Source of the DNA: an uncultured Candidatus Saccharibacteria bacterium
Lineage (GTDB): Bacteria; Patescibacteriota; Saccharimonadia; Saccharimonadales; Saccharimonadaceae
Direction: 5' to 3'
NCBI GenBank assembly: GCA_947166125.1
Contig: CAMVCW010000004.1
Span: 2,949 to 66,948 of the forward strand
Length of the DNA stretch: 64,000 nucleotides
Below are positions 10 to 49,854 of the stretch, one piece after another. The stretch's first letter is position 1; each line of letters begins with the position of its first letter. A model generated the notes under the pieces. The model had not been told where the DNA came from, did not search any database, and was given only the letters and a program-made list of their open reading frames with translations. The translations under genes were made by a program, and so were the position numbers.

Positions 10-1584
10 GTGCTAAAACGAATGTTTGGCGACTCTTGGGGGCCGCGTTTGGAGCACATATTGCGTTATACCCTGCTAGCCTTGTTGGATAGGCCGGAGG
101 CTACTTTGCTAGATATTTCTAGATTATTAACAGATAAAGAGTTCCGGAAAGAAACTTTGGATTATTGTAAAGATGTAACGGTGTTGCAATTCTGGAAACA
201 TGAGTTTGGCCAGTGGAACGAAAAGCAAGTAAATGAATCCATCGCACCGGTACTTAATAAGGTAGGTGCGTTTACCGCCAACCCGATTATCCGCAACATC
301 ATCGGGCAGCCAAAATCTTCTTTTGATGTGCGTAAGATTATGGACGAGGGGAAGATTTTAGTAGTTAACCTTTCTAAGGGGTTAATCGGGGAAGATAATG
401 CCGGGATCTTGGGATCTTTTCTGGTCACCAAGGTGCAACTTGCGGCTATGTCGCGCTCCGATATCCCTGACGTAGCGGACCGGCGGCCATTCTACCTATA
501 TGTGGATGAGTTCCAGAACTTTGCTACAGATTCGTTTGCGGTAATTCTCTCTGAGGCACGCAAATACGGCTTGAATTTAACCGTGGCAAACCAATATGTC
601 TCCCAGATGACCGATAGCGTACGCGATGCAGTATTTGGCAACGTGGGCACCACGATTAGCTTTAGGGTATCGGCGGACGATGCGCCAGTACTAGTAAAAC
701 AATTTGAGCCGACTTTCGAAGAAGGCGACATTATCCAATTAAACAACCGCCATTTTGTGATTTCTATGATTATTAACGGTGAAAAGGTACCAGCATTCTC
801 CGCTACCACCCTCTCTATTCCAGATACGCCTAAAGACAATTTCGATGCCATCGTAGCACATTCTCGCGAAAATTATGCTAGACCGCGCCTAGAGGTGGAG
901 GCCGAAATTCGTGAGACAATTGAGCAATCCGAGAAGTACAAGAAAAATTTGTCTGATTCTGGCCGGCAAGATGAACCACGTTTGGTAATAAATAGTGCCG
1001 AACAACCAGTATTTAAGCCTGTAACGCGTAACAATAAGGAGTTTTCTACTTCTATTAGAACTTCTGGCCCTAGTTTTTCTTCCGAACAAAAACCGAACTT
1101 AAGATACCGGCCTACTCCGCAAGCGGATTTTCGTAAACAGAATCTTAGCCCAAATGCCGCCGAAGGCAAAGAAAGATTAGGCTTGAAAGATTTGGCAAAA
1201 TTAGTAGCAGAAAACCAGGGAAACAGTGCAGAGAAAAAGGCGGATACTGCGCCAGCTCCTACTAAAAAGGGAAAGACTAACAATAAAAATAAGCGGCGTA
1301 ACGACAGAAAGGGAAAGAAACAGCCTGGAAAGTCGCACAATAATGCAAATACGAATATTACAGAGAGAGATAGAGCAATTCCCCCTGTTAAGCCTAACAT
1401 AAATACTAGCAATAATCAGATTCATTCTACCCCTGTTAAGCCAGAGGTGGAATACCAAGAAAAATCAGTGGTAGATATAAAGCCGTCTCATAATTCTCTA
1501 CCCCTGTCTACTCCTGTTAAGCACACAGAAGATTTTGCCAACAAGGATAACTCTGTAGATGGATTTTTATCTATAAAACATTAA
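10..1584 (+). CDS. VirB4/TraG-like (type IV secretion coupling/HerA-FtsK clade) ATPase, C-terminal part, 5'-truncated by the window; long low-complexity basic tail
   Basis: Walker B region LYVDEFQNFATDSF..ILSEARKYGLNLTVANQ; clearly paralogous to 60101-62914; frame is open at the window edge. Confidence 0.8.
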   Translation: MLKRMFGDSWGPRLEHILRYTLLALLDRPEATLLDISRLLTDKEFRKETLDYCKDVTVLQFWKHEFGQWNEKQVNESIAPVLNKVGAFTANPIIRNIIGQPKSSFDVRKIMDEGKILVVNLSKGLIGEDNAGILGSFLVTKVQLAAMSRSDIPDVADRRPFYLYVDEFQNFATDSFAVILSEARKYGLNLTVANQYVSQMTDSVRDAVFGNVGTTISFRVSADDAPVLVKQFEPTFEEGDIIQLNNRHFVISMIINGEKVPAFSATTLSIPDTPKDNFDAIVAHSRENYARPRLEVEAEIRETIEQSEKYKKNLSDSGRQDEPRLVINSAEQPVFKPVTRNNKEFSTSIRTSGPSFSSEQKPNLRYRPTPQADFRKQNLSPNAAEGKERLGLKDLAKLVAENQGNSAEKKADTAPAPTKKGKTNNKNKRRNDRKGKKQPGKSHNNANTNITERDRAIPPVKPNINTSNNQIHSTPVKPEVEYQEKSVVDIKPSHNSLPLSTPVKHTEDFANKDNSVDGFLSIKH

Positions 1585-1650: not shown

Positions 1651-1737
1651 CAGAAAGAAAAGAAAACAAACAAAAATCTGCAACCAACCCGAAAAATAGA
1701 CATTTTTTGGATGGACGAGCAATCGTCTTTTTTATAT

Positions 1738-1765
1738 AGTTTTAATGTCGTACAATATGGAAACC
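1738..1765. repeat. Left prophage junction, dif-like 11-6-11 site
   Basis: AGTTTTAATGT-CGTACA-ATATGGAAACC; partially palindromic arms; right arm resembles the Bacillus dif arm TTATGTAAACT. Confidence 0.65.
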
Positions 1766-1825
1766 CCGACAATAGATATAGGGCGTGTCATAACCCGTTT
1801 TAATAATTAATTTCCATAGGAGGAT

Positions 1826-2059
1826 ATGATGGAAAATACCCTAGCAAAATATTTAGGTAAGGAACTAAAAGCTTCCATAGGTAGTATACAGGTAGTGCAG
1901 GGAACTGCAAAAGATTCTGGAAATATTTATTACTGTTTAGATATTACACTTACTAATGGTTATAAGTATCGCAAGTTTTTGCGTGGATCAGAAGAATTTG
2001 CTTGGTCTAATGCTTTTGACCAATTAGATATTGAAAAACAGGTTGACGCTGCATTTTAA
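1826..2059 (+). CDS. Prophage protein, possibly ssDNA-binding (pV-like)
   Basis: 77 aa, SD AGGAGG, beta-rich; follows rep in the circular map as gV does; function inferred from position only. Confidence 0.5.
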   Translation: MMENTLAKYLGKELKASIGSIQVVQGTAKDSGNIYYCLDITLTNGYKYRKFLRGSEEFAWSNAFDQLDIEKQVDAAF

Positions 2060-2233
2060 CATTTATTGGTGCTTACCATCCTAATCGTTAGATGGCCGAC
2101 AGGTAAGTTAAATGTCGTGAAGAAGAACAGCCAATGGAAACTATATATCAGGGTGGGTTGCCCTGTCCTACGACCTCACATTTATCTTCTTCGTAATCAT
2201 AAAATTGCCTAGGACAGGGATTTAAGGAAAAAT

Positions 2234-2383
2234 ATGAATCGCTACTTTTCATTAAGACAACAAATAGATCGGGAAATTTCTAAGATCCCTAAGAAAAATC
2301 GGCCAAAGTTTCAGGCAGATTATTTAAAATTAATACAATTGGCACAAAAGGAAAATTATGAAAATTTTAACCTCCTCGGATGA
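2234..2383 (+). CDS. Prophage small basic protein, 49 aa (MNRYFSLRQQIDREISKIPKKNRPKFQADYLKLIQLAQKENYENFNLLG)
   Basis: SD AAGGA; below the ORF-track cutoff; overlaps the next ORF. Confidence 0.55.
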   Translation: MNRYFSLRQQIDREISKIPKKNRPKFQADYLKLIQLAQKENYENFNLLG

Positions 2384-2612
2384 TGACTTTCTTTACGAAC
2401 GTCTTTTAGAATTACTTGAGCAGATGAAACTTGTTCAAGGTGGTACTGCTCTTGCTTCTTCACTTCGTCGTCATAATAAAATTAAACTTTATATGATTGA
2501 AAAACAAATTCAGAAAATTAAGCATATTGAAGAAACATATTTTTGTAAAGATGGTTTAGACCAAACTGCTATTGAAGCATATCTTCATAAAATATCTTTA
2601 CAAAATAAATAA
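2358..2612 (+). CDS. Prophage hypothetical protein
   Basis: 84-aa ORF co-oriented with the phage genes. Confidence 0.55.
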   Translation: MKILTSSDDDFLYERLLELLEQMKLVQGGTALASSLRRHNKIKLYMIEKQIQKIKHIEETYFCKDGLDQTAIEAYLHKISLQNK

Positions 2613-2681
2613 TATTTAGTATATTAACATTAGGAGAGTAAATAACTCACAACTTAAGGTGGGAATTCCAAAGAGGAATAT

Positions 2682-2852
2682 ATGGAAGGAAATACTGCGT
2701 TGTTAGATGTTAGCGCCCTTACTTCCGCTCTTACCACTTCGACTTTTGCTGGTGTGATTCAATCACTGCTTCCAATCGTGGCTGTGGCTGTACTTGTAGG
2801 CTTCTTGTTCTACGTTGTACGCTGGGCAATCGGACTATTCCGGGGCATTTAA
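2682..2852 (+). CDS. Major coat protein (pVIII-like), 56 aa
   Basis: MEGNTALLDVSALTSALTTSTFAGVIQSLLPIVAVAVLVGFLFYVVRWAIGLFRGI: amphipathic N-terminus, one TM helix, basic C-terminus; SD GAGG; strong hairpin directly downstream. Confidence 0.8.
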   Translation: MEGNTALLDVSALTSALTTSTFAGVIQSLLPIVAVAVLVGFLFYVVRWAIGLFRGI

Positions 2853-2858
2853 CCAACA

Positions 2859-2887
2859 GCGAGGGCGTGTCTTATTCACGCCCTCGC
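2859..2887 (+). terminator. Hairpin after the coat gene (terminator or processing site)
   Basis: Perfect 11-bp stem gcgagggcgtg/cacgccctcgc; no clear U-tract. Confidence 0.5.
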
Positions 2888-2907
2888 CCATAATATAAGG
2901 AGATTTA

Positions 2908-3012
2908 ATGGTACAATTAGCTCAAGCTTTTGTAGACGTTTTAGCATGGTTTTTAATTCCGTTTGCTACTATTGTAGCTGTTACTTGGGTTGTTTCTCTT
3001 TTTAGGAGATAA
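2908..3012 (+). CDS. Minor coat protein-like (pVII/pIX), 34 aa
   Basis: MVQLAQAFVDVLAWFLIPFATIVAVTWVVSLFRR; SD AAGGAG; single TM helix. Confidence 0.7.
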   Translation: MVQLAQAFVDVLAWFLIPFATIVAVTWVVSLFRR

Positions 3013-3014
3013 TT

Positions 3015-3176
3015 ATGTTTATTTTAATTTTTCTAATTTTAATTATTCATACTGTTTTATTATTTATGATTTATTCAGAAATAGAAAAAACTTTGGATAA
3101 TACTTTTGAAAATGGAAATAATATTATGCAAATTAAAAGATATTTTGTAAGATTTTCTAGAAAGGGAAAGAAATGA
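3015..3176 (+). CDS. Minor coat protein-like, 53 aa
   Basis: N-terminal TM helix (MFILIFLILIIHTVLLFMIY), basic tail; SD AGGAG; ATGA overlap with the next gene. Confidence 0.65.
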   Translation: MFILIFLILIIHTVLLFMIYSEIEKTLDNTFENGNNIMQIKRYFVRFSRKGKK

Positions 3177-3868
3177 AATGTTTCCGGTGCTTCTCTTTTG
3201 TTTTGTTTGCTTTATTGGGTGTCTTTTTTGGCTCATTTATTATAAATCAAAATGATATTTATGCTCTTGATAATATAACTTATACCATTAATTCTTCTAA
3301 TTATACTAATGTTCCGTATTATTTTTGTGATAACTCTGATTCTTCTCTTCCTGATTGTTCTGGTTATAATTATTTAGTTGCTTATAGTAACGATTCGTGT
3401 TCTTTTAGTAATCCTGCTTCCATTTTTTATTTTCAATTTTATAATTCTATGATTACTACCAATCCTACTTTTAATCCTCAATTTTATAGTATGCAATTAT
3501 TTGAATTTCCTGGTTATTATGGTTCTCCTTCTCGTTTAGGCTTTTCTGGTTCTTCTTATGTTTCTTCTTTTTTGACTAATGATTGTGAAATTTCTGTTAT
3601 TGTTTCTGAAAATAATCCGTATGTTTCAGGTATAACTCCATCAGGTTCAATAGAGTTGACAGAAAATGGTACTTATGATGTAAGTCAATATGCCGAAGCT
3701 GTAGTTAATGTACCAGAAACAGATTGTCCGCCTGGTACTGGAGGGAATTATCATGAAGATTTAGTAGCCATTAACAATTCTATTATGATTTGTGCTGCTA
3801 CTTGTCTTGTGATTTATTTCTTCTATTGTATATATCGTATGATAATTAAAAATTCGGGGGTAAAATAA
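3173..3868 (+). CDS. Prophage exported virion/adsorption protein
   Basis: Signal peptide, Ser/Asn-rich body, phage-type motif ELTENGTYDVSQYAEAVVNVP, C-terminal TM helix. Confidence 0.65.
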   Translation: MKCFRCFSFVLFALLGVFFGSFIINQNDIYALDNITYTINSSNYTNVPYYFCDNSDSSLPDCSGYNYLVAYSNDSCSFSNPASIFYFQFYNSMITTNPTFNPQFYSMQLFEFPGYYGSPSRLGFSGSSYVSSFLTNDCEISVIVSENNPYVSGITPSGSIELTENGTYDVSQYAEAVVNVPETDCPPGTGGNYHEDLVAINNSIMICAATCLVIYFFYCIYRMIIKNSGVK

Positions 3869-3869
3869 A

Positions 3870-5321
3870 ATGAAAGGAAAAATATGTGGTCTATTATCAG
3901 CCTTATTCATCACGCTTGGGTTGTCATTAAGTATAAATTTAAACGATTCTAGTGCTTTAAAATATTCTTATAATGCTTTTCCTGTTATTCAAAAATCTTT
4001 AACTGCTGGTTCTTCTTCTATTCCTAATGCTAGTTCTAGCACTTTTTCTGTTACTTTTGATTCTACTTTGACTTCTGATGTTTCTGCCCCTGAAGGTGTT
4101 ATGGAATATAAGCAACTTCAAAATGGTAATTGTGTTAATTTAGGTACTAGTGGTATTTTTGGTCTTGTTTCTATTCAAGATCGTAATCAAATTAATATTA
4201 ATTCTGGTTCTGGTCGTGCAGGTCATTATCGTTATTTTAATGTTCGTCCTCCTTTATCTTCTGATTATTCTAGTGTGTCTTCTTTTCCTACTGATTTTAT
4301 GAACTGTCATAATTCTGGTACTTATGACTATGATTCTATTTATGGTGGTACTATTGATATATCTACTGGTGATTATGATAAATTTATAGATATTTCTCGT
4401 GTTTATGGTGGTTTTCGTTCTGGTGGTCTTAAAATGATTCAAGTTCCTTTAGATATTTCACAATCTAATGTTGGTACTATTTCTTCTGGTACTCCACTTT
4501 CTTGGACTTTTGAAATATTTTCTCTTTCTCCTTTACAAAATATTTCTTCTTCTCCTGATATTAATTTAGATTTAACATATTTTCCTAATAATTTTGATAC
4601 TTGGTCTGGTACTGTTGCTGATTTTGGTTCTTCTCGTATTTCAGCTTCTGCTTCTTGTACTTATGATCCTAATCATGAATTTTTGAAAGTCAATGAAGAT
4701 TTAACTTTTTCTCACATGTATGGTTATAAGGTAGATTGTAGTTATACTGCTTCTACTGATATGTCTAATATTTTTGCTACTTTATTTATTAGTGGTGATT
4801 CTACCGTTAATCCTGTAAATATTTTTACTTTTTCTGATTATCTTTATTTTGGTTCATCTTATCTTGTTACTAATAATGATGATACTTATTCTGGTAAAAA
4901 TGCTAATGAGGAACCTACTGGTGATAATATTGAAAAAGCCCCTGGTTATTCTTCTCTTTATTGTGATAATGCTGCAACTTGTGATCCTCCTGGTGATGGT
5001 ATGTTTGGTCTTACTGAGTTATTTAATTTTACATTTATTAATCCTTTCGAACCTATTTTACATTTATTTACCGATAATGGTTCTTGTGTTCAAATACCTA
5101 CTATTGCTGGTATGATACATAGTGAAGAAACAGGGGTTTGTCCTTGGTTTGATTCTAATGTTCGCAATATTGTTACTCCCGTTCTTGGTCTTTCTTCTAT
5201 GATGTTGGTATTTGGTTTTGCTGTTAGATGGTTAGGTGCAAGGTCTGGTAATATGTTTGAAGATAGTTTTGAAGGAAGTTCTGGTGGTATATCTATTGGT
5301 ACTAAAGGAAGGAGTAAATAG
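3870..5321 (+). CDS. pIII-like adsorption protein
   Basis: 483 aa; signal peptide, S/T/G/D-rich ectodomain with Cys pairs, C-terminal TM anchor; sits before the pVI- and pI-like genes. Confidence 0.7.
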   Translation: MKGKICGLLSALFITLGLSLSINLNDSSALKYSYNAFPVIQKSLTAGSSSIPNASSSTFSVTFDSTLTSDVSAPEGVMEYKQLQNGNCVNLGTSGIFGLVSIQDRNQININSGSGRAGHYRYFNVRPPLSSDYSSVSSFPTDFMNCHNSGTYDYDSIYGGTIDISTGDYDKFIDISRVYGGFRSGGLKMIQVPLDISQSNVGTISSGTPLSWTFEIFSLSPLQNISSSPDINLDLTYFPNNFDTWSGTVADFGSSRISASASCTYDPNHEFLKVNEDLTFSHMYGYKVDCSYTASTDMSNIFATLFISGDSTVNPVNIFTFSDYLYFGSSYLVTNNDDTYSGKNANEEPTGDNIEKAPGYSSLYCDNAATCDPPGDGMFGLTELFNFTFINPFEPILHLFTDNGSCVQIPTIAGMIHSEETGVCPWFDSNVRNIVTPVLGLSSMMLVFGFAVRWLGARSGNMFEDSFEGSSGGISIGTKGRSK

Positions 5322-5593
5322 TGTTAGATACGGTATTTAATTTATTAAAAGTTACTGCTGTTGTTGCTGTTTCTGCTATTTTTATGGTTGCTATAATAAA
5401 CCTTGTTAATCTTATCAATTCTGTTTTATTTGGTAATATCATTGGTGAAATACTTGGTCTTGTATCTATGTATTTACCATTTAATGCTCTTGCTGTATTT
5501 GGTGCCATAGGTACTGCTACTATAGCTATTTTATCTTTCTTAATTGCCAAGAAAATATTTGATTTAACTTCTTGGAGTATTTCTTCTATTTAG
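5321..5593 (+). CDS. pVI-like hydrophobic minor coat protein
   Basis: 90 aa, almost entirely hydrophobic; canonical position between pIII and pI. Confidence 0.65.
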   Translation: MLDTVFNLLKVTAVVAVSAIFMVAIINLVNLINSVLFGNIIGEILGLVSMYLPFNALAVFGAIGTATIAILSFLIAKKIFDLTSWSISSI

Positions 5594-5623
5594 TTATAAT
5601 TTATTTATAATAAAGGAGATAAA

Positions 5624-5827
5624 ATGTTAGAAAATTTAGAACAGATTTATATTATCTTAATTGCTCTTAGTTTGTTTTTATTTATTTTGTTTATTTATTT
5701 AGTTTATTGTATTGCAGAGATTAAAAATCAATTGAAATCATTTGTTGATTTAGAATATAAAAAATATAAGGAGGATAATGTCAAGAACACAATCAGTAGT
5801 CAGCCTGGATCCGATAGACCGGAATAA
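5624..5827 (+). CDS. Single-TM protein preceding pI
   Basis: 67 aa, N-terminal TM helix; SD AAAGGAG. Confidence 0.6.
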   Translation: MLENLEQIYIILIALSLFLFILFIYLVYCIAEIKNQLKSFVDLEYKKYKEDNVKNTISSQPGSDRPE

Positions 5828-6464
5828 TAAACGACGTTCTGGTCCACTAGGTCGGTTTTTTAAAACTAAACATTATCATGGAAAGGGAATTAAAAAAACT
5901 GACCCTTTTGGCCATTATCTTTTTGTCGGTCGTCAACGTTCAGGTAAAACTGTAAGTGCTATTTGGTATTATGAATTTTTAAAAAAACGGTATGAAAAAC
6001 AAGGTAAAAAAGTAGTTTTATATAGTAATATGGGTTTTGGACAACCTGTCTTTAAAATGAATTTGTCCGCAATTATTAGAGAAGTAAAATTTGATAAAAA
6101 TGTTATATATATTTTTATTATAGACGAATTACAGAGTTATTTTCCAAAAGATACTAAAGACCAGACGACATTACGACTCATTGACGAGCTGACGGGTGAA
6201 TTTTCACAATTAGGTAAACGGCAGATCTATGTGCTTTCTACTGCTCAAATTTATGGCCGTGTAAATAAAAATCTCCGAGAACAATGTCTTTATATGGTGA
6301 ATTGCAGAAAATCTAAATTAACAAATCATGTAGTTAATGATTTTATAGATGGTGATGATATTTTGTGTGATGATTTAGGCCGTTGGAGCGGCGAACCGGT
6401 ACGCATTTTGGTTCACGGACTCCCTAGCACTAAATTTGACACGCACCGTATGATTACTGTTTAA
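5778..6464 (+). CDS. Zot/pI-like morphogenesis ATPase (no TM segment)
   Basis: Walker A GRQRSGKT, Walker B IFIIDELQ, downstream STAQ..R..K.LREQ pattern typical of pI; SD AAGGAGG. Confidence 0.85.
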   Translation: MSRTQSVVSLDPIDRNNKRRSGPLGRFFKTKHYHGKGIKKTDPFGHYLFVGRQRSGKTVSAIWYYEFLKKRYEKQGKKVVLYSNMGFGQPVFKMNLSAIIREVKFDKNVIYIFIIDELQSYFPKDTKDQTTLRLIDELTGEFSQLGKRQIYVLSTAQIYGRVNKNLREQCLYMVNCRKSKLTNHVVNDFIDGDDILCDDLGRWSGEPVRILVHGLPSTKFDTHRMITV

Positions 6465-6465
6465 T

Positions 6466-6589
6466 TTCTTTTTTGGCTTAACTGAATAAGAAAATTTCTT
6501 GCGGTTTCTGTCAAGGGCGGGCGAAGCCCGTTCATTTACCCTTGACGGAAATCCGCTGAAATTTTACCCTGTTAAGCGCCAAAAAAGAA
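6466..6589. other. Long nested hairpin (candidate single-strand origin or packaging signal)
   Basis: Nested stems ttcttttttggc..ttaac/gttaa..gccaaaaaagaa, tttctgtcaaggg/cccttgacggaaa, and a gggc-gaa-gccc tip. Confidence 0.55.
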
Positions 6590-6592
6590 AAA

Positions 6593-6656
6593 GTCAAAGT
6601 GGGCATTATATTATCCCTCTACTTGATAATATAATACATAAATTGCCCACTTTGAC
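6593..6656 (+). other. Rolling-circle double-strand origin candidate
   Basis: Stems gtcaaagtgggca/tgcccactttgac and attatattatc/gataatataat; ACTTGATA (6621-6628) at the tip matches the phiX174/pC194 CTTG|ATA nick consensus. Confidence 0.7.
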
Positions 6657-6695
6657 GTAATAGAATAATTATGTTATAATGTTAGGAGTGAGGTT

Positions 6696-7475
6696 ATGCA
6701 GGTACGGTATATTTCTAATATAACTAAGGAATATCCTGATATGATTAAGGTTGTTATTTATAAAGAACCCAAAACTTTTATAAGGTCTGACTTTACAAAA
6801 CGGAATAGGGAAGAAGTAGATGATGTTACTTATACTCCATCTATTTCTTCTCTTAATAGAACTAAAACACTTGTACGTGATTTAGTTCTCTGTAATGAAT
6901 TTGAATTATTTTGTACATTTACTTTTAATCCTGATAAAGTAGATTCGTTTAATTATATTAAGTGTTGGGGTAAAATGTCTCGTTGGCTTCATCATCAATC
7001 TGATCGTAGCAGGGAAGTAGGTAAAGAATTCAAATATTTAATTATTCCCGAAAAACATAAATCTGGCCGTTGGCATTTTCATGCCCTTATTTCTGGCTAT
7101 ATTGGCTCTCTAAGCCCATCTGGCTATAAGACTATTACACTTAGACCTATATATAATATAACTAGCTTTAGAAGCGGTTTCACGACTGCTGTAGGTATAG
7201 ATTCTAAAGAAGGTGTATCTAACTATATAACTAAATACATAACTAAAGATTTTATTAAGTCTTTTAATCAGCGTAGGTTTATGTGTTCACGTAATTTGGT
7301 TCGTCCAGTTAAAACTATTAATTCACCTATCTACAGAAATACATTACCTATTTTTAGAAGAAAAGTAGCAGAAAATAATGAAACTTTTGAATTTCTTATT
7401 GACAAAATTCAAGACATTTATAATAATGTTGATAAGGTTTATTATAGCCCTAACGTCGTACAATATGGATTTTAA
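6696..7475 (+). CDS. HUH rolling-circle replication initiator
   Basis: Motif I FCTFTF, motif II WHFHAL, motif III YITKYITK; own TGTTATAAT promoter and SD. Confidence 0.9.
   Translation: MQVRYISNITKEYPDMIKVVIYKEPKTFIRSDFTKRNREEVDDVTYTPSISSLNRTKTLVRDLVLCNEFELFCTFTFNPDKVDSFNYIKCWGKMSRWLHHQSDRSREVGKEFKYLIIPEKHKSGRWHFHALISGYIGSLSPSGYKTITLRPIYNITSFRSGFTTAVGIDSKEGVSNYITKYITKDFIKSFNQRRFMCSRNLVRPVKTINSPIYRNTLPIFRRKVAENNETFEFLIDKIQDIYNNVDKVYYSPNVVQYGF
7446..7473. repeat. Right prophage junction
   Basis: AGCCCTAACGT-CGTACA-ATATGGATTTT; 18/19 identity with the left junction over 7451-7469 vs 1743-1761. Confidence 0.7.
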
Positions 7476-8104
7476 GACATTACGGTTATGGTTTTTAGAC
7501 GGTTAAGTTATCGTCTTTTGTGGGTAAGTTTTTCCTGGCGGGCGGGAATTACGACTAAAATCGTTTTTCGACTAGCTGCAGTCCTTATTTTAGCTACAGT
7601 CATAATTCTTATTTCAGGAGCCGGACTTGGCAGTTGATAATTTCTGCAAAATCCGGCAGACGCTCGCGTCTTACTCGTCGACTGCAGTATTTTCTATATG
7701 GAGGCTCAATCTGGGGCCCAATATAATGCAATGATTTTTACAAAAATCCTCAGGTTGGACGCTCACGTAACTGGGATTTTGCAGAAATTACAACGGGCCA
7801 AATCAATTTTTATGCTCCTGAAATAGGAATTATGACCATAAAAAGCCTTCCAGTTTGGTGCATTTAGGCTAATTTTATAAGGTTTTGGTGGAATTTTCGG
7901 GTTTTTGGCCGAATTTGGGCTAAATTTGCCAATTTGACAATTCCCTTGGTTTATTTCCCTTTTTTATGATTTTCCCTGTTTTTGGTCGGGGCGTTGGTAT
8001 TATTCGTTATTTTGATTACCATTTTTGCCGAACAAAAACCGAACAGGAATAGGAAATTATAGAATTGCAAATACTAGAACAAAACCCGAACGCTTCCCTA
8101 TCCC

Positions 8105-9934
8105 CTACTCAATAGTCCAGGGGGAGGTGGCGGTGCCAGTACCGCCGGTGACTTGGATGTGATGCATTAAAGAAATCACAGGCCGCACGCCACCATTATT
8201 AGATGAGTAATTATATCCAACACTCCCATCCGTATTTGTAGAATTTATAAAAACACTACCGTCTGTACCTCGTCGCCAGTATGGAGTCATTGTCCAAATC
8301 CTTGAGTTGGAAAAAATATAAAATCTGGTAGAAAAAGTAAGTTCATCGGACGTTAAAAGAGCAATTGGCTTATTGAGCTGCTTATTACCGCCGCTGGCAG
8401 AATTAGTGGAATATAAATCTACGACATTCCGCGAACAAGTAAGCGACGGCGAAGAAACGAGTCCAATTTGATTGCGCAACATCGACCCAAAACGGTATTG
8501 CACTACACCAGACATCGTATCGTTAACATATGGAGCAACAATGCTATCTTGGCTAGTAACGACTGTAGATTCGTTGTAAATACTTCTATCATTGCAATAC
8601 CCAGCGCTAAACTCTAGCCTACTTTCATAACTACTCATCACATTAGGAAACCAAGTATTCTCTAGATAGTCTTTAATGGTAGAATCTGTGCTGTTGCCAG
8701 AATAGTTTTCATTTGTGCCAAATAACACACCATATGAAGTATTCCCATTAGTAGTCTTATAATCACTGTTAAAAGTATAGCCTGTCGTAACAATACTAAA
8801 ACTACCCGTGCCAACATTATTAAAGGCTTTAGTAGTAGTTCGCGCATTCGCTGTTGCATTCGCACAACTCCCAGCTGTAGTAACACCATACATGCCATTG
8901 TAGATCATCTTCACTCCACCAGAGCCAGTGGTTCTCACAATACGCCAACAAGTACCATTGGATAATTTTACGTAGTTTGGCCAAGCATCAGCCTTACCAT
9001 CTGAACCGTAAGTGCCTAGTCCTTCATTTGTGTCTAATATGCCACGGTAAAAATAAATGCTATAGTCATTTGAAGCATCGCTGGCGGCACCGTATACGGT
9101 TGGATCATAAGTATAGACGCCAGAATTAGCTTGGGTGATAGTGTCGGAGAGTTTGACGTTGTTTTCTGCTAGGGTGCCTTTAGTCATATATCTTACTGTA
9201 TCGTATAGCGTAGGTGGCTCTGGATTTGATACGGCATAGAAATTAATAATATTGGTATATTCTCCACTTGGCTGAGTATTGCTAGAATTAGCTGCTATCT
9301 TAAAGTCTATAGTTTTACTATTTGCTGGATTATAGGTAGAGATTAGTTCTGCAGAATGTTCTGTGTCTGAATATACTGGTAAACCACTATATGATTGCCA
9401 AGTAGTGCCATTGTCTTTTGAATAACTATAACCCCAAGTATTAGTGGGGAGATTGTCTTTGTTTGTAATATTAGCACCGTAGGCTAAACTAGCAAATGTT
9501 GCATTGGTGGTAGGAGTAGAAGTGGCGGAAGAAGCGTGAACTAGGTTGGTAGTATTGTAGTTAGTAGTATTACTGCCTACATTAGCCGTGAGGTTATAAC
9601 CATACGCCGTGTTGGCAGCTATGTTTACTGTAATAGTATTACTTTCTACAGCTGTACCTGGTGTAAGATTTGAAATAGTTAAATTATCCGGTGAGATACT
9701 TAGTGAGATGGTAGGGTTAAAAGTAAAACCAATACTAACGTCAGTAGAATAACTTAAAGCGGAAGTATCTAAAACGTTAGATAAACACAAAGTTATGTTT
9801 GCGAAACTTAATATTATGATTGTTAAGCTTAATGTTATGATTTCTTTCTTCCCTGTAAAATGGCTAGTTATGTTCTTTAAATTCAATGTTATGTTTCTAA
9901 CATTTGAACTTATGTTATTTTGATATTGCCGCAT
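8105..9934 (-). CDS. Surface protein: type-alpha N-terminal domain plus DUF6273-like C-terminal domain
   Basis: N-terminal TM/signal; N-domain similar to 51659-53122; C-domain motifs CWRIVRTTGSGGVKMIY, IALLTSDE, GGVRPVISL. Confidence 0.65.
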   Translation of the reverse strand: MRQYQNNISSNVRNITLNLKNITSHFTGKKEIITLSLTIIILSFANITLCLSNVLDTSALSYSTDVSIGFTFNPTISLSISPDNLTISNLTPGTAVESNTITVNIAANTAYGYNLTANVGSNTTNYNTTNLVHASSATSTPTTNATFASLAYGANITNKDNLPTNTWGYSYSKDNGTTWQSYSGLPVYSDTEHSAELISTYNPANSKTIDFKIAANSSNTQPSGEYTNIINFYAVSNPEPPTLYDTVRYMTKGTLAENNVKLSDTITQANSGVYTYDPTVYGAASDASNDYSIYFYRGILDTNEGLGTYGSDGKADAWPNYVKLSNGTCWRIVRTTGSGGVKMIYNGMYGVTTAGSCANATANARTTTKAFNNVGTGSFSIVTTGYTFNSDYKTTNGNTSYGVLFGTNENYSGNSTDSTIKDYLENTWFPNVMSSYESRLEFSAGYCNDRSIYNESTVVTSQDSIVAPYVNDTMSGVVQYRFGSMLRNQIGLVSSPSLTCSRNVVDLYSTNSASGGNKQLNKPIALLTSDELTFSTRFYIFSNSRIWTMTPYWRRGTDGSVFINSTNTDGSVGYNYSSNNGGVRPVISLMHHIQVTGGTGTATSPWTIE

Positions 9935-10915: not shown

Positions 10916-12151
10916 TTACGCCTCTTCCAAAATTATTTCGGCTAGGCGCTTGGCTGCATCAGAACGAGCTTCTTTGGCGAGGTAATCGGCCATATCAGCG
11001 CGAAGACGTGGAGATTTAACTAGGTGACGAATTTCTTCCAATAACTTATTAGGGTCAGCCATCATGTCGGCATCTTTGATGACCAGGGCGGCCTTAGCCT
11101 GTTCTAATCTCTCGGCGTTTTTGACTTGGTGACCGCCGGGCAAACGCTCAAATGGTACTAAAATGGTAGCTTTTTTGAGCGAGGCCATTTCTGCAATAGT
11201 AGTAGCGCCGGCGCGAGAAACCACTACATCGGCAGCGCCCATTAGTTCATTCATGGTGGTATTGAATTCCCACATACGAAAATTGGATTCTAGACTAGCT
11301 TTTTCCCAGTTTTCATATTTTTTGAGATCGACCATATTTTCGTAATGTTTGCGACCGGCAACCAAGCCAACGGAAGTAAATTTTAATAATTCTGGTAAGA
11401 TTTGGCGAGTGGCTTCGTTAAGGTTTTCTGAACCTTGGGAGCCGCCAGTAATTACCACTAAAGGTTTTTCAGCATTGAAAGAAAAGGCTTTTTTGAGCGA
11501 AAGTTGCTTGGCTGGGCTGACCGGCTTGAACTCTGAGCCAACTGGTATGCCGGTCCAGACGTAATTTGGATGCTTTTCTAGCATCTCTTTGGATAAAGGC
11601 ATTCCGAAGGCGACTTTTTTGGCCTTGCGCATGAGTAAGCGATTAGCTAGGCCTGCTACTACATCAGATTCGTGGATAATGTAAGGGATACGGAAAAGGC
11701 GTGCAATCAGGCCAACTGGCAAGCAAACATATCCACCTTTAAGAAAAATAATGTCAGGCCGGGAGGATTTCCTGATGAGCCGGAAAAATGCAGTAAAAAT
11801 GCCAAAAATAAAACCGAAGAAGCCAATAATATTGCCAAAGATTAAATCTTTTAGCGTGATATCTAGATGTACGAAATAATCTTTAAAAGACCAACCCGAA
11901 TAACGATGGAATTTCCCTGCCGGGATGCGGCGCACGCGAATGTATGGGCCCTTGCCGCGGTGTTCGGATTTGTTTTCTTCGCCCCAAGAAACACCGATTT
12001 CGGTGGTGAGTTTGGTGACGTTTTTATAATATTTGAAATCAGTCCAAAATTCTACACCTGTACGGGGTTTTTGACTGATAATTTCACGAACTACGGCGAC
12101 CGCTGGAGTGATGTGCCCCCCGGACCCCCCGCCGACTACTAATATCTTCAT
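10916..12151 (-). CDS. murG: UDP-GlcNAc:lipid I GlcNAc transferase
   Basis: GGGSGGHITP, GGSQGS and SRAGATT motifs; dcw context. Confidence 0.95.
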   Translation of the reverse strand: MKILVVGGGSGGHITPAVAVVREIISQKPRTGVEFWTDFKYYKNVTKLTTEIGVSWGEENKSEHRGKGPYIRVRRIPAGKFHRYSGWSFKDYFVHLDITLKDLIFGNIIGFFGFIFGIFTAFFRLIRKSSRPDIIFLKGGYVCLPVGLIARLFRIPYIIHESDVVAGLANRLLMRKAKKVAFGMPLSKEMLEKHPNYVWTGIPVGSEFKPVSPAKQLSLKKAFSFNAEKPLVVITGGSQGSENLNEATRQILPELLKFTSVGLVAGRKHYENMVDLKKYENWEKASLESNFRMWEFNTTMNELMGAADVVVSRAGATTIAEMASLKKATILVPFERLPGGHQVKNAERLEQAKAALVIKDADMMADPNKLLEEIRHLVKSPRLRADMADYLAKEARSDAAKRLAEIILEEA

Positions 12152-13316
12152 TTCTAGTTACCTCTCTACTAGTATAACATGAAAGTTGGCAAACTTCACC
12201 AATAGCAAAAGCAATAAAGATCATGCTGGTGCCACCATATGAAAGAAGCGGTAGGGTGATACCAGTAACCGGCACGAGACTGGTCATTGCCATGATATTA
12301 ACTACTACCTGTGCTAAAGTCCAAGAGAAAACACCAATGACAAGTAGGCGATTATCGAAATCGGCAGTGCCTTCGGCGACTTTGAGCATGCGAAGCAGTA
12401 TGACGCCAAAAATAGCGATAATAATAAATAGCCCGATGAAACCAAAGGTTTCGCCCATGATAGCAAAAACGGAGTCGTTGATAGATTCTGGCAAATAGCC
12501 GGTAGCCTGAACAGAATTTCCTACTCCCACGCCGAACATACCGCCAGTACCAATAGCTAACATGGCGTTTTCTACGTGGTAGGTAGAGTCGGTACTTTCT
12601 CCGCCAGTGAGAGTAGTGAGCCAAGCATCTACACGCTGCATACGGTGAGAAGACGTAATGACAGAACCAACTGCTACAGCCAACACTACGGCTAGCATAA
12701 TGAGATATTGCCGAGCTGGTACGCCAGAAATAAGTAGAGTGCCAAAAATGATAGAGATAAGGGCTACGCCGGTACCGAGATCACCCTGGGCAATCACAAC
12801 AAGAAATAGCGATAGGCCACAGACGATAAGTAGCGGTAGCCAAAATTCACGCCATTTGCCAATTACGCCCTCTTCCCTCTTGCGGGAAAGAAAATCTGCC
12901 AGATATATCACCATGGCAAGCTTTAAAAGTTCTGCTGGCTGAAAACTGAGCCCACCAAAATTGAACCAACGACATTCGCCAAGCTCACATTTGACGAGTG
13001 ATGAATGCATCATAGCCAAAATCCAAAGCAAACCAGATAGAATTAGCGAAATAATCATCAAGGGTTTAGCAAATTTCTTGACATATCTGTATGGTATCCA
13101 TTTGAAAGCGGCAAAAAAAGCTAAAAGCGAAAGACCAACAGAACGAAGCTGCCCGATAAAGAAGAAGTTTGGATCATAATCTGTACCGTAGGTATTATTT
13201 AAAACGTTGGCGCGCATGGGGCCGATGGCGTAAATCACAATGAGGCCAAGCGCCATTAATCCTAACGTGGCAAATAAAATCACGAGATCAGATTTGTGTT
13301 TTCTGATAGTGGGCAT
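12084..13316 (-). CDS. ftsW: SEDS peptidoglycan polymerase FtsW
   Basis: SFQPAELLK, DLGT, TGITLPLLSYGGTS; start placed at the TAATG overlap with mraY. Confidence 0.9.
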   Translation of the reverse strand: MPTIRKHKSDLVILFATLGLMALGLIVIYAIGPMRANVLNNTYGTDYDPNFFFIGQLRSVGLSLLAFFAAFKWIPYRYVKKFAKPLMIISLILSGLLWILAMMHSSLVKCELGECRWFNFGGLSFQPAELLKLAMVIYLADFLSRKREEGVIGKWREFWLPLLIVCGLSLFLVVIAQGDLGTGVALISIIFGTLLISGVPARQYLIMLAVVLAVAVGSVITSSHRMQRVDAWLTTLTGGESTDSTYHVENAMLAIGTGGMFGVGVGNSVQATGYLPESINDSVFAIMGETFGFIGLFIIIAIFGVILLRMLKVAEGTADFDNRLLVIGVFSWTLAQVVVNIMAMTSLVPVTGITLPLLSYGGTSMIFIAFAIGEVCQLSCYTSREVTRNEDISSRRGVRGAHHSSGRRSS

Positions 13317-18295: not shown

Positions 18296-19303
18296 ATGGA
18301 AAATACCGATCTTATAAAGGAAAGTAATGCGACCGAACCGTTTGATGTCTTTCTCTGGGCGAACGAGATTGATGAAGTAAAAAACAACGTTTCGGCGGAG
18401 CTGTTTTTATTTAACAAAAATTACACACCGTACAAGATTAAATATTCAGATAAACTGACCGGTGCAGTGAAATCGATGTTCATGCAAGAGGCGGTGCATT
18501 ATATTATAGAGGAAGCGGACAAAGGCCTAGAGGTACGCGATTATGAAAAGGCAGACGGCGAGGAAAAAGTAATTTACCGTACTTTCCTTTCCAAGGTTGG
18601 CCGCGCCGAAACTTTAATCCACTTGATTGAAAATGAGTATAAAGATATAGATTATTTCTCTGAAAACGAGTATGATTTTAAGAAGGTCAAGGGCATTATT
18701 GCTAAGTTTACTTACCCGGGCGAAGACGGGATGAAGACTTTCTATATTGCAAAGATTTTGCCGGCTTCGGCAGCGCTGAAGGGGGCGACATCTTGGGAGA
18801 TTAACGGCGAGAGTTTTGAACCGTTCTCTGCCGAGATTGCACTCAAGATGCCAGAAGATAACCAGGTGGCGATAGTGGATGGCACGATTATCGTGTTTAA
18901 CCAAGCTAAGTTTGAGAATTTGTTCCAATACGATTATAAATCTCAGGTGATTGCTGAGGCGAAGGCAAAAGAGTTAACCGAAAAATATAAACTATCTTTT
19001 GCGGAAGGGTTGACTCTAGATGCACTGTTAGCAGATAAAAAGCCAATCCTTAAAAAAGTACAGGCGATGGATATTGCTGAAGAAATGCCACAGGATAAAT
19101 TGCTAGATTACGCGGATGAGATGCAATTAGAGTTAATGACGGACGATGATGGCTCTATTATTATCATGGATGATAAAGATCTCACAATGTTTGTGAATTT
19201 ATTGAACGAAGATTATTATGTATCGCCGGTAAATGGTAAGCGATATGAGATTAAGTCTAAGAAATTACTCGGCGAGCCAGACGGTGAACCACCGAGAGGA
19301 TAA
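18296..19303 (+). CDS. DUF4868 / Kiwa KwaB-like protein
   Basis: Acidic 335-aa protein ending FVNLLNEDYYVSPVNGKRYEIKSKK, the C-terminal pattern recalled for DUF4868; recognition only. Confidence 0.55.
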   Translation: MENTDLIKESNATEPFDVFLWANEIDEVKNNVSAELFLFNKNYTPYKIKYSDKLTGAVKSMFMQEAVHYIIEEADKGLEVRDYEKADGEEKVIYRTFLSKVGRAETLIHLIENEYKDIDYFSENEYDFKKVKGIIAKFTYPGEDGMKTFYIAKILPASAALKGATSWEINGESFEPFSAEIALKMPEDNQVAIVDGTIIVFNQAKFENLFQYDYKSQVIAEAKAKELTEKYKLSFAEGLTLDALLADKKPILKKVQAMDIAEEMPQDKLLDYADEMQLELMTDDDGSIIIMDDKDLTMFVNLLNEDYYVSPVNGKRYEIKSKKLLGEPDGEPPRG

Positions 19304-42684: not shown

Positions 42685-42761
42685 GGGGTAATAGCTCAGC
42701 TGTTTAGAGCGCCGCCTTTGCAAGGCGGAGGTCCAGGGTTAGAGTCCCTGTTACTCCACCA
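42685..42761 (+). tRNA. tRNA-Ala(TGC)
   Basis: Cloverleaf, G3:U70 identity pair, anticodon TGC, encoded CCA. Confidence 0.93.
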
Positions 42762-42765
42762 GATC

Positions 42766-42842
42766 GGGGATATAGCTCAGCTGGTTAGAGCGCGTCACTG
42801 ATAATGACGAGGTCTGTGGTTCAAGTCCACATATCCCCACCA
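42766..42842 (+). tRNA. tRNA-Ile(GAT)
   Basis: Cloverleaf, anticodon GAT, encoded CCA. Confidence 0.95.
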
Positions 42843-46894: not shown

Positions 46895-47563
46895 CTATCG
46901 CCGTGAGCAAATTGGCAGATTTTTGGTATAAACCATACCAAGAGTCTCGATATACATCACGCCGTTAGCCATGTATTTGCTCTGAGGATATAGCAGATCC
47001 AGAGAGCTCCTACCGAACCTGTAAACATTCCTAGCCACTACCTCTGACACAATATAAAAGGTGTTATTGGTGGGCGGCGGGAATTTTTGTTCAATACCGC
47101 CATCTGAGAGGACAGTGATTTTTCTTAGGCGGGATGCAACAACGGGAACGTCGTTGATTATGGTGCCGAGGACCTTTGCTGCAACTGGCTGAACTGGATC
47201 ATTGAAACATACATACGCTTTGCCGGCTGGAGGGAGGACGTCGGATTCGCCATTTCTGTCGACAAATACGATTGGCTTGCCGCAGAGATTAACGAGTTTG
47301 ATCTCCGATGTTGCATCTTTGGCTTTAGGGCAAATCTCTGGAATCGCTCCTTTGATAGCTTGCTCATCTTGCCCCTCGTGGGCAACGCCGTCGACGAAGC
47401 CGGCGTACTCTAGAGCAGTTTTCCAATCGCCGAAGTAGCGAAAATATGTACTTCGGCTCGCCATCTCTGGGGTAAGGTCTTTTTGTCTAGGGGCTCTGCC
47501 GAGCTCGTTGCCGAGATTCGCAAGTGCATCTGAGAGGATGCGTTTGTTATAGCATTTGGCCAT
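46895..47563 (-). CDS. Fusion of a homing-endonuclease-associated repeat-like domain and a phage-type domain
   Basis: N: LGRAPRQKDL..SRSTYFRYFGDWKTALEYAGF; C: LVNLCGKPI..LPPAG..FYIVS..DLLYP. Confidence 0.55.
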   Translation of the reverse strand: MAKCYNKRILSDALANLGNELGRAPRQKDLTPEMASRSTYFRYFGDWKTALEYAGFVDGVAHEGQDEQAIKGAIPEICPKAKDATSEIKLVNLCGKPIVFVDRNGESDVLPPAGKAYVCFNDPVQPVAAKVLGTIINDVPVVASRLRKITVLSDGGIEQKFPPPTNNTFYIVSEVVARNVYRFGRSSLDLLYPQSKYMANGVMYIETLGMVYTKNLPICSRR

Positions 47564-47744
47564 TATATCACCTTCTATAAAGAATTTTACAGGCGAAAAG
47601 TGCCTACTTCCCACCTTAGTAATACTTTTCATTATAGTGCTATTTTTAACCAAAAGCAACCTGAAGCATTTTGGAATATGGCAAAGCCCCGACTATGAGG
47701 TCGGGGCAAAGTGACTATGCGGGGTATTTCTGTTTTACTGCACG

Positions 47745-48318: not shown

Positions 48319-49854
<1,536 letters not shown>

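Follow-up and report, generated by a model that had tools for sequence, protein, structure and literature searches.

A small inovirus-like prophage at a conserved chromosomal site in ruminant-gut Saccharibacteria

The DNA considered here, hereafter the window, is a stretch of 64,000 nt (64 kb) from contig CAMVCW010000004.1 of an uncultured Candidatus Saccharibacteria bacterium (assembly GCA_947166125.1); coordinates are positions in the window, L-numbers denote related loci or contigs from other assemblies, and X-numbers denote sequencing runs. Near its left end lies an insert that we identify as the intact integrated genome of a small filamentous phage (Tubulavirales-like, inovirus-like). The window contains exactly two copies of a 15-bp direct repeat, GTCGTACAATATGGA, one at 1747-1761 and the other at 7455-7469, spaced 5,708 bp apart; the chance expectation is 0.04 matches. 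The insert between them (1762-7469, 5,708 bp) has a G+C content of 31.4%, compared with 42.6% in both flanks, and a coding fraction of 89%. Both the repeat and the compositional shift agree with the extent (1747-7469, 5,708 bp) that an earlier note on this DNA had given to the element. Its 12 open reading frames (ORFs) all lie on the + strand, each behind a Shine-Dalgarno-like motif, and four of them (49, 56, 34 and 53 aa) are shorter than 60 aa, in keeping with the note's remark that four genes fell below the cutoff of its ORF track. The note had seen no frameshifts, and indeed all 12 ORFs are intact: they are stop-free and conserved both in L003, a circular free form, and in L028, a prophage that comes from a different study and is 94% identical, and the majority are conserved too in the more distant prophages L004, L008 and L009.

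Read as a circle from the replication initiator gene (rep), the gene order is Rep, 77 aa, 49 aa, 84 aa, 56 aa, 34 aa, 53 aa, 231 aa, 483 aa, 90 aa, 67 aa, the 228-aa ATPase and a structured intergenic region (Table 1). This order is collinear with that of the Ff phages with the exception of the secretin, which is absent from the 12 ORFs, an absence in keeping with extrusion across an envelope of one membrane. Searches of Pfam and PHROGs revealed no recognisable lysis gene in the 12 ORFs.

Table 1. Positions of the features of the element, its attachment sites and its immediate host flanks
Feature	Position	Strand	Basis or remarks
VirD4/TrwB-like coupling-protein ATPase, C-terminal part, host flank	10..1584	+	Pfam TraG-D_C, E 9.5e-6
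attL, 28-bp hybrid site	1745..1772	+	ATGTCGTACAA-TATGGA-AACCCCGACAA (host left arm, centre, phage right arm); core 1747-1761
77-aa protein, first after Rep on the circle, gene-V position	1826..2059	+	53-100% conserved in relatives
Basic protein, 49 aa	2234..2383	+	56-100% conserved in 4/5 relatives; no PHROG family match
Helical protein, 84 aa	2358..2612	+	49-100% conserved; no family match (Pfam, PHROGs)
Candidate major coat protein, 56 aa	2682..2852	+	acidic N-terminal part, membrane helix at residues 28-46, C-terminal Arg
Candidate minor coat protein (pVII/pIX-like), hydrophobic, 34 aa	2908..3012	+	87-100% conserved; assigned by size and position
Candidate minor coat or assembly protein, 53 aa, N-terminal membrane helix	3015..3176	+	34-41% identity in distant relatives
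Candidate adsorption/virion-tip protein, 231 aa, signal-like N-terminus, C-terminal anchor	3173..3868	+	hydropathy; no family
Candidate pIII-like receptor-binding protein, exported, 483 aa	3870..5321	+	N-terminal half variable, C-terminal ~200 aa and anchor conserved
pVI-like candidate, 90 aa, two membrane helices	5321..5593	+	72-97% conserved; weak match to phrog_1944, E 0.04
Single-pass membrane protein, 67 aa, overlaps pI start	5624..5827	+	hydropathy
pI/Zot-family morphogenesis ATPase, 228 aa	5778..6464	+	Walker A GRQRSGKT; Zot profile, tblastn, fold match
Intergenic origin region, two large single-stranded DNA hairpins	6465..6695	+	fold energy, invariant block
Rep, HUH rolling-circle initiator, 259 aa	6696..7475	+	PF23343 (REP_ORF2-G2P), E 1.8e-12; phrog_3419 (rolling-circle initiation family), E 3e-15; motif I FCTFTF, HUH motif HFHALI, Tyr motif YITKYITK, read in the ORF
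attR, 28-bp site	7453..7480	+	ACGTCGTACAA-TATGGA-TTTTAAGACAT (phage left arm, centre, host right arm); core 7455-7469
Conserved host-flank hairpin by att, AGACGGTTAAGTTATCGTCT	7497..7516	+	kept in 4 species and in the empty-site consensus

By profile and by motif, Rep is an HUH rolling-circle initiator. It has 678 relatives in a large protein collection, and among the 120 Rep clusters listed, the longest contig measures 5.1-6.2 kb in 37 and a contig of more than 10 kb is present in 6. The spacer between the ATPase gene and rep, where the earlier note had placed the origin, bears the marks of one. Folded as single-stranded DNA, it reaches -58.7 kcal/mol (z -11.9) in two large hairpins, and the only block that is invariant across five relatives, T.TACTTGAT.ATATAATACATA, forms part of the loop of hairpin B, the second of the two (its stems are 6593-6605 and 6644-6656), where it reads CTACTTGATAATATAATAC (6619-6637). 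Because this block and the phiX174 origin (caACTTG^ATAtt) both contain ACTTGATA, and the annotated start of phiX174 viral-strand synthesis comes right after the G of ACTTGATA, the nick is predicted to fall after G6625 (CTACTTG^ATA). Besides this origin core, ACTTG^ATA, the phiX174 gene A protein has in common with Rep the two-tyrosine motif Y-x-x-K-Y-x-x-K, which is the phiX form of that motif; the two systems differ in virion type, and in the element the origin is intergenic and set in a hairpin loop. A circle of ~5.7 kb would thus replicate by the rolling-circle mode, with the HUH Rep nicking the hairpin-loop origin in this spacer. The other candidate for a structured origin, the spacer at 2060-2233, was rejected, its fold z-score being merely -1.2. 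The best predicted sigma-70-like promoter of the region, TTGACG-17-TATAAT (6652-6680), stands directly upstream of rep. A second promoter-like element, TTGACA-17-AATAAT, lies within the 3′ end of rep (7399-7427), and its -10 box is not conserved in L008 or L009; since it reaches the 77-aa gene only on the circle, integration might conceivably uncouple the morphogenesis genes.

To judge from its sequence and modelled fold, the 228-aa ATPase is a divergent Zot/pI protein. Although the window copy scores 20.2 bits against the Pfam Zot cut-off of 20.3, 20 of the 23 members of its family match Zot (best E 2.2e-7). The top Foldseek match in the PDB to its AlphaFold (AF2) model (predicted local distance difference test score, pLDDT, 75) is 2r2a, the N-terminal domain of Neisseria Zot (E 4e-6), with RecA/RadA-like ATPase folds close behind; in sequence, the pI profile and Rep had zero matches in the PDB. 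In tblastn searches, the ATPase was 31-36% identical (E 1e-9) to Zot-annotated genes of 5-7-kb Streptococcus and Lacticaseibacillus elements in PLSDB, which are its best matches among named hosts and which likewise have a short pI and no secretin, and 58% identical to its counterpart in pRGI00481, a circular element from rat gut. A scan of IMG/VR with the pI profile returned four contigs only, of 4.3-4.5 kb, at 53-57% identity. Two sets of these relatives, pRGI00481 itself (L100, HG796330.1; deposited as an uncultured-bacterium plasmid) and L089-L092 (IMG/VR 3300011982), are circular or near-complete elements of 3.9-4.5 kb with pI 53-58% identical and an inovirus-like gene order, and form a smaller sister lineage. 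The 67-aa membrane protein encoded beside the ATPase, which lacks a membrane helix of its own, may be its membrane partner. A frameshift fusion of this small ORF to pI was rejected, because L004 carries a comparable 69-aa membrane ORF placed after pI rather than before it.

The closest counterparts of the element as a whole are the small Inoviridae of the gut (Dulem virus 66, PP511394; bajarodino viruses, PQ0061xx; porcine Inovirus sp., MT1352xx), which are circular, measure 4.5-8.8 kb, and encode a Rep of the same family (39-44% identity for the Dulem and bajarodino viruses, best E 5e-32, tblastn) and a short, ~225-aa Zot-type ATPase (28-30% identity, E 1e-5). The matches of pI and Rep, for which the earlier note had proposed searches of virus catalogues, lead to inoviruses for both. 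Dulem virus 66 also has the same order of large protein, small protein, Zot and Rep. It differs from the element, as does bajarodino virus 35, in having a minus-strand repressor/DNA-binding gene; the coat and adsorption genes of these viruses have no detectable similarity to those of the element, for which alone a host has been linked.

The proteins of the structural module were assigned roles from size, hydropathy, position and conservation, not from homology. The 56-aa ORF fits a major coat protein in its size, helix, position and conservation: it is 94-98% identical in relatives whose Reps are merely 65-71% identical. Its best family matches are weak (phrog_2186, a virion structural protein, and His1_capsid, both E 0.03), and no coat family matched significantly. 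Across the module, conservation is distributed as expected of a virion, with the 56-aa and 34-aa proteins 87-100% conserved and the exported proteins 29-55%. The 231-aa exported protein is among the most variable genes (29-55% identity across relatives). The 483-aa protein (34-42% identity among relatives) has 372 cluster representatives at E<=1e-3, the common part being residues ~280-483, and zero matches to a known pIII or to any other protein in Pfam, PHROG or GenBank phages; its variable N-terminal half and conserved C-terminal ~200 residues form the pattern of a modular receptor-binding protein. The earlier note had recognised no family for these two ectodomain proteins, and the same searches found none. 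The assembly module would accordingly comprise the 56-aa coat candidate, small hydrophobic proteins, the two anchored adsorption candidates, the pVI-like protein and the Zot/pI ATPase. Of the complete filamentous-phage gene order that the earlier note had described, the pI ATPase, Rep, the origin and the Ff-like collinearity stand, and the coat and adsorption labels are without homologues in known phages. The note's idea that the phage enters by way of type IV pili is speculative. Its label of ssDNA-binding (single-stranded DNA-binding) protein for the 77-aa product does not stand: the confident AF2 model (pLDDT 88.5) has three strands and a C-terminal helix (beta3-alpha), unlike the gene-V folds, and its structural neighbours include none that is significant (best PDB E 0.075, best BFVD E 0.03) and no gene V protein.

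The element also exists as a circle. The free form L003, from another sample, is a contig of 5,763 nt whose ends overlap by 30 nt; it aligns to window positions 5554-7465 (94.4%) and straight on into 1731-3268 (92.9%), and so spans the junction inside the repeat. Three further contigs of 5.4-5.8 kb have terminal overlaps and are circular, and in run X20, labelled as probable RNA, one contig contains the joint 7454->1747 and thus 'goes back 5708'. In runs X20-X22, the element is present almost without host flanks; no junction contig was seen in runs X1-X4. The circular junction that the earlier note had predicted is therefore found in both L003 and run X20. Joining 7469 to 1762 yields a 271-aa Rep, of which 257/271 residues are identical to the Rep of L003 (P0001). 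Integration exchanges the last 13 codons of rep for a single one, leaving Rep 12 residues shorter; the window copy ends in ...QYGF and other integrated copies in ...QYRF. The vacant state is present as well, since one contig from the same metagenomes joins the window's own left flank directly to its right flank.

The flanks of the window are those of the related prophage-bearing loci. The locus reads topA, a sigma-70-like gene, a VirD4/TrwB-like ATPase of ~1000 aa, the prophage, a minus-strand variable surface protein and then MurG-FtsW-MraY-PBP-RsmH, and it is occupied in L004/L005, L008, L009, L028, L065, L096 and L097 (at least eight assemblies), as well as in contigs of runs X1 and X3. In the long-contig prophages (L004/L005, L008, L009, L096 and L097), Rep is 65-94% identical, and contigs of one sheep-gut and one bovine-gut run contain the integrated element at ~95% identity. 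Full-length orthologues of the ATPase (DUF8128 and TrwB_AAD_bind) precede the prophage in L004, L008 and L009. When one genome per species was scanned with the att core and right flank as the query, 78 loci were obtained, nearly all from Ca. Saccharibacteria or Ca. Nanosyncoccus and mostly from ruminant intestine, three being untitled 'bacterium' metagenome-assembled genomes (MAGs). The site is empty in 73 of these genomes, occupied in two (L028, Rep 94% identical; L065, Rep 66%) and not judgeable in three, so that the empty sites in related genomes for which the earlier note had advised looking are abundant. It is a single-copy site, with one match per assembly in 77 of the 78, the exception being a scaffold with Ns. 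In almost all of the 73 genomes with an empty site, the VirD4-like gene stands before it, and att lies 70-170 nt past the gene in related genomes. The right flank of the window is 97% identical to that of a dairy-cattle MAG, and its immediate left flank is identical to the empty site in UBA2866. NCBI taxonomy places Nanosyncoccus within Ca. Saccharimonadota; the corresponding class in the Genome Taxonomy Database (GTDB) we take to be Saccharimonadia. The assignment of the host to the Nanosyncoccus group of ruminant-gut Saccharibacteria is sound. Given these flanks, an att site confined to Saccharibacteria, and a Rep and a Zot-type ATPase that match small gut Inoviridae, the central claim of the earlier note, an intact inovirus-like prophage in a Saccharimonadia genome, is upheld.

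The attachment site can be read to the base. attL and attR are the only copies of the site in the window. Over the empty sites, attB has the consensus ATGTCGCACAA-TATAGA-TTTTAAGACAT, an 11-6-11 imperfect palindrome in which 8/11 arm positions are symmetric, set amid diverged intergenic DNA. Every attP, likewise an 11-6-11 imperfect palindrome, consists of the left arm GTCGCACAA, a 6-nt centre and a right arm that has GAC at positions 7-9 and is otherwise free; it is located at or just past the 3′ end of rep and has its left arm and central region in common with attB. A similar left-arm motif, AATGTCGCACAATAACTA, occurs in L089, L091 and L092 of the sister lineage, with a right arm that lacks GAC. 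The centre varies by lineage (TATGGA, TATAGA, TACAGA, TATATC, TGCATA), and in five of six prophages attL has the same centre as attR. In L009, attL has TATGGA and attR TATAGA, and L008 has a one-base difference between its left arms; taken together, the two mismatches place the crossover within ACAATAT, at the boundary of left arm and centre. Host sites with the centre TGCAT occur in runs X2 and X4, and the phage L093, from a different sample, has the attP centre TGCATA. In L095, attP is inverted relative to rep, which fits recombination on double-stranded DNA.

How might a genome of this kind enter the chromosome? Searches of Pfam and PHROGs found no recombinase domain in the 12 ORFs, and the largest unassigned cytoplasmic ORF has only 84 aa. 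We propose that the 28-bp attP would recombine site-specifically with the conserved, single-copy 28-bp chromosomal site past the VirD4-like gene, and that the catalyst would most likely be a host Xer-type tyrosine recombinase, as in CTXphi and VGJphi, which belong to the integrative mobile elements exploiting Xer (IMEX). A host tyrosine recombinase is suggested because no integrase is encoded and because the site is of the 11-6-11 core type with matched centres; for the Xer type in particular, we put the chances slightly above even. In favour of dif as the target, it can be said that the site is single copy, that genes converge on it, and that the 16S rRNA gene points towards it. Several observations weigh against dif. 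First, attB has 12-18/28 identities to the dif seeds of E. coli, B. subtilis and Frankia (taken from PMC3025954), and many random 28-mers of the window reach 17-19, so that attB was rejected as a canonical dif by sequence, its similarity being at chance level. Second, the component of GC skew that does not depend on gene strand, read over 8-64 kb around the site, stays positive to its left (+0.067) as well as to its right (+0.02 to +0.08); with no switch detected at the site, skew was discarded as evidence of a terminus. Third, gyrB and gyrA lie ~50 kb from the site. Fourth, neither the window nor ~800 kb of neighbourhood loci yielded an Xer gene, and a regular-expression search of those ~800 kb for Xer-type motifs gave nothing convincing. 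For these four reasons, we do not call the site dif.

Whatever probability an Xer-type enzyme and the phage's own Rep leave between them falls to some other recombinase acting in trans. Taken more broadly, the possibility that the target is not dif and that integration proceeds without Xer, either through strand transfer by the HUH Rep or through an unknown host recombinase by the VirD4/FtsK-like gene, seems to us unlikely. Less likely again is integration by Rep itself, which would nick attP and a host look-alike and join the strands in the manner of rolling-circle transposons or the Rep of adeno-associated virus. Rep is the only DNA-cleaving enzyme that this integrase-less genome encodes; attP is situated within rep or beside it, much as gene A contains the phiX174 origin; the att sequence CACAATATAGA and the origin block GATAATATAAT both contain AATATA; short inverted repeats, GTC..GAC, occur at both att sites; and neither skew nor sequence supports attB as dif. 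However, the origin, which is strongly structured and invariant and contains the phiX-like ACTTGATA, is 830 nt distant and remains inside the prophage, and the inverted repeats at att, of only 3-5 bp and separated by 16-18 nt, are not strong enough to make a hairpin substrate. The 11-6-11 dyad with matched centres is the signature of a tyrosine recombinase, and the inverted attP of L095 is at odds with a strand-specific nick in the viral strand. A host-supplied tyrosine recombinase thus remains our preferred catalyst.

Is the element a phage at all? Weighing against this, its virion is a prediction from genes, and tblastn of the coat and adsorption proteins against GenBank phages gave no meaningful match. 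The modelled 77-aa protein does not have the five-stranded oligonucleotide-binding (OB) fold of gene V proteins, and hydropathy reveals no membrane helix in pI. In addition, the ratio of prophage to chromosome coverage, a check that the earlier note had suggested, gave no sign of high-copy replication in four DNA runs, where the depth of the element was 0.25-0.6 of that of its flanks. Depth jumps at the att core because the site is vacant in many of the strains that occur together. A small rolling-circle plasmid or integrative element that carries a Zot-like ATPase and forms no virion would accommodate the missing coat homology, as well as a Rep that is 35-38% identical to those of 1.4-kb staphylococcal rolling-circle plasmids and pI relatives that are filed under 'plasmid' records (pRGI00481 and 5-7-kb elements of Streptococcus suis and S. 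thermophilus). Resemblance to plasmid Reps is usual among HUH Reps, however, and the elements filed as 'plasmids' are inovirus-like in gene content and bear Zot annotation. Among annotated complete genomes, the closest are Inoviridae, and seven membrane or exported proteins are conserved in an Ff-like order, the 56-aa protein under extreme constraint and the exported ones highly variable. The earlier note had held that its reading would fail if pI and Rep grouped with proteins of plasmids or integrative and conjugative elements and no coat homology were found; pI groups with inoviruses, although Rep resembles plasmid Reps, and we consider an element without a virion very improbable. A decaying remnant, or an assembly chimera of a foreign phage and a Saccharibacteria contig, is scarcely credible: the G+C content is 11 points off the flanks, and the exact Rep, 483-aa and 609-aa flank proteins are absent from a large assembly index (which does not include the window's own assembly), but 12/12 ORFs are intact and match the free circle, the att site is found only in Saccharibacteria genomes, and a chimera, for which the earlier note had named independent assemblies as the test, is excluded by the same junctions having been assembled independently in at least eight assemblies, on contigs as long as 159 kb, and again in contigs from another two runs, with host flanks that are those of Saccharibacteria. 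That the element is an active inovirus-like phage of Saccharibacteria is, in our judgement, highly probable. The explanation in full, an integrated filamentous phage with rolling-circle replication, a morphogenesis module and integration by a host recombinase, we regard as probable.

Several features of the neighbourhood deserve mention. The non-coding ~620 nt to the right of attR (7481-8104) contains islands conserved across four species, among them a TTTCCC-rich block, AAATTTGCAAATTTGACATTTCCCCGTTTTTATTTCCCTTTTTT...GAACAAAAACCGAACAGGAATAGGG, at about 7920-8055. No Rfam family was found in 7380-8160, and, with no tRNA nearby, a tRNA, tmRNA or other RNA gene was rejected as the integration target. 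The first gene to the right of att varies by species: in the window it encodes a 609-aa protein with no Pfam match (8105-9934, -), in L004/L005 Flg_new-repeat giants of 1,492-1,617 aa (L004 11398-16251), in L008 a protein with a CdiA_C toxin domain (10946-11377) and in L009 a 621-aa protein (11386-13251). The att site thus adjoins a hypervariable slot for surface or toxin genes. On the left, the VirD4/TrwB-type ATPase, which is related to FtsK/HerA (L004 1858-4893), has no virB4 neighbour within the flanks read. The gene at 18296-19303 (+), some 11 kb from the prophage, encodes a KwaB-like protein (Kiwa anti-phage defence system; PF16162, E 2e-8), with a syntenic family member at L008 20195-20345. 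Farther along the window, a homing-endonuclease-associated HNH-repeat protein lies immediately downstream of the 16S rRNA gene (46895-47659 (-), 48320-49854 (-)), and the 16S gene is unlinked to the tRNA-Ala/tRNA-Ile pair at 42685-42842 on the other strand. Two contigs from elsewhere depart from the common arrangement. The 8.9-kb scaffold L021 (DEEY01000013.1, UBA2866) has two att sites 178 nt apart (oriented 5872, 6050) with Ns between them, one with the window's left flank, and looks like two strains joined in scaffolding. The L006 prophage (ERZ28654782 scaffold_7484, 2406-8868), which is related to that of L004, is without the left third of the element and has Cthe_2159-family, VTC and DUF4956 genes before it in place of the VirD4-like gene; either the copy has been rearranged or the context of integration is a second one.

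The element adds a member to a known kind, the filamentous phages that infect single-membrane hosts and integrate with no integrase of their own. Propionibacterium phage B5 and the plectroviruses are inoviruses of single-membrane hosts. They differ from the element in host phylum, and its pI, devoid of a membrane helix, has a small membrane protein at its side. The closest parallel for integration is found in the IMEX filamentous phages of Vibrio, CTXphi, VGJphi and TLCphi, which use host XerCD at dif (PMC4246890, PMC9226527). Like the element, they have no integrase gene and an attP that imitates a host site of 28 bp, in which two arms flank a 6-nt centre; also similar are the centre that matches one side only, as in L009, and the complete host-type site that is left at one end. 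Unlike them, the element has a host site whose similarity to dif is at chance and which shows no switch in GC skew, and its attP overlaps the 3′ end of rep, so that Rep is truncated upon integration. Its distinctive traits are therefore the position of attP over the rep 3′ end, the helix-less pI, the non-OB protein in the gene-V position and a target that is not recognisably dif. The catalogue of Roux et al. 2019 (PMC6813254) gives nine inovirus prophage detections in Candidate Phyla Radiation (CPR) genomes, e.g., Magasanikbacteria; in the text and supplements examined, Saccharibacteria are not named, and, unlike the present data, the catalogue gives no att site, free form or occupancy. Shaiber et al. 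ran an inovirus detector on oral TM7 without reporting an inovirus. Our literature search found no paper on inoviruses of Saccharibacteria or on Xer/dif in Saccharibacteria.

The phages of CPR bacteria are almost unknown, and in a 2026 paper CPR phage-host interactions were called "largely speculative" (PMC13578794). The data presented here provide a host-linked family of filamentous phages with hundreds of relatives in ruminant guts, for which the integrated, empty-site and circular states are all found in the same data and the attachment site is mapped to the base. The family is abundant and linked to its host and seems to be active, and its general type had been anticipated. It can now be asked whether populations of ultrasmall epibionts are shaped by phages that are chronic and non-lytic, how a filament gets out through such an envelope, and what role the 28-bp site has for the host; the fixed position of the VirD4-like ATPase beside this site raises the possibility of a functional link. 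If integration truly bypasses dif and Xer, it would represent an undescribed route, and the phage family would give Saccharibacteria their first natural replicon that integrates at a defined att, and the CPR a genetic tool. A 5.7-kb replicon with a defined site is a natural starting point for the development of genetic tools for Saccharibacteria.

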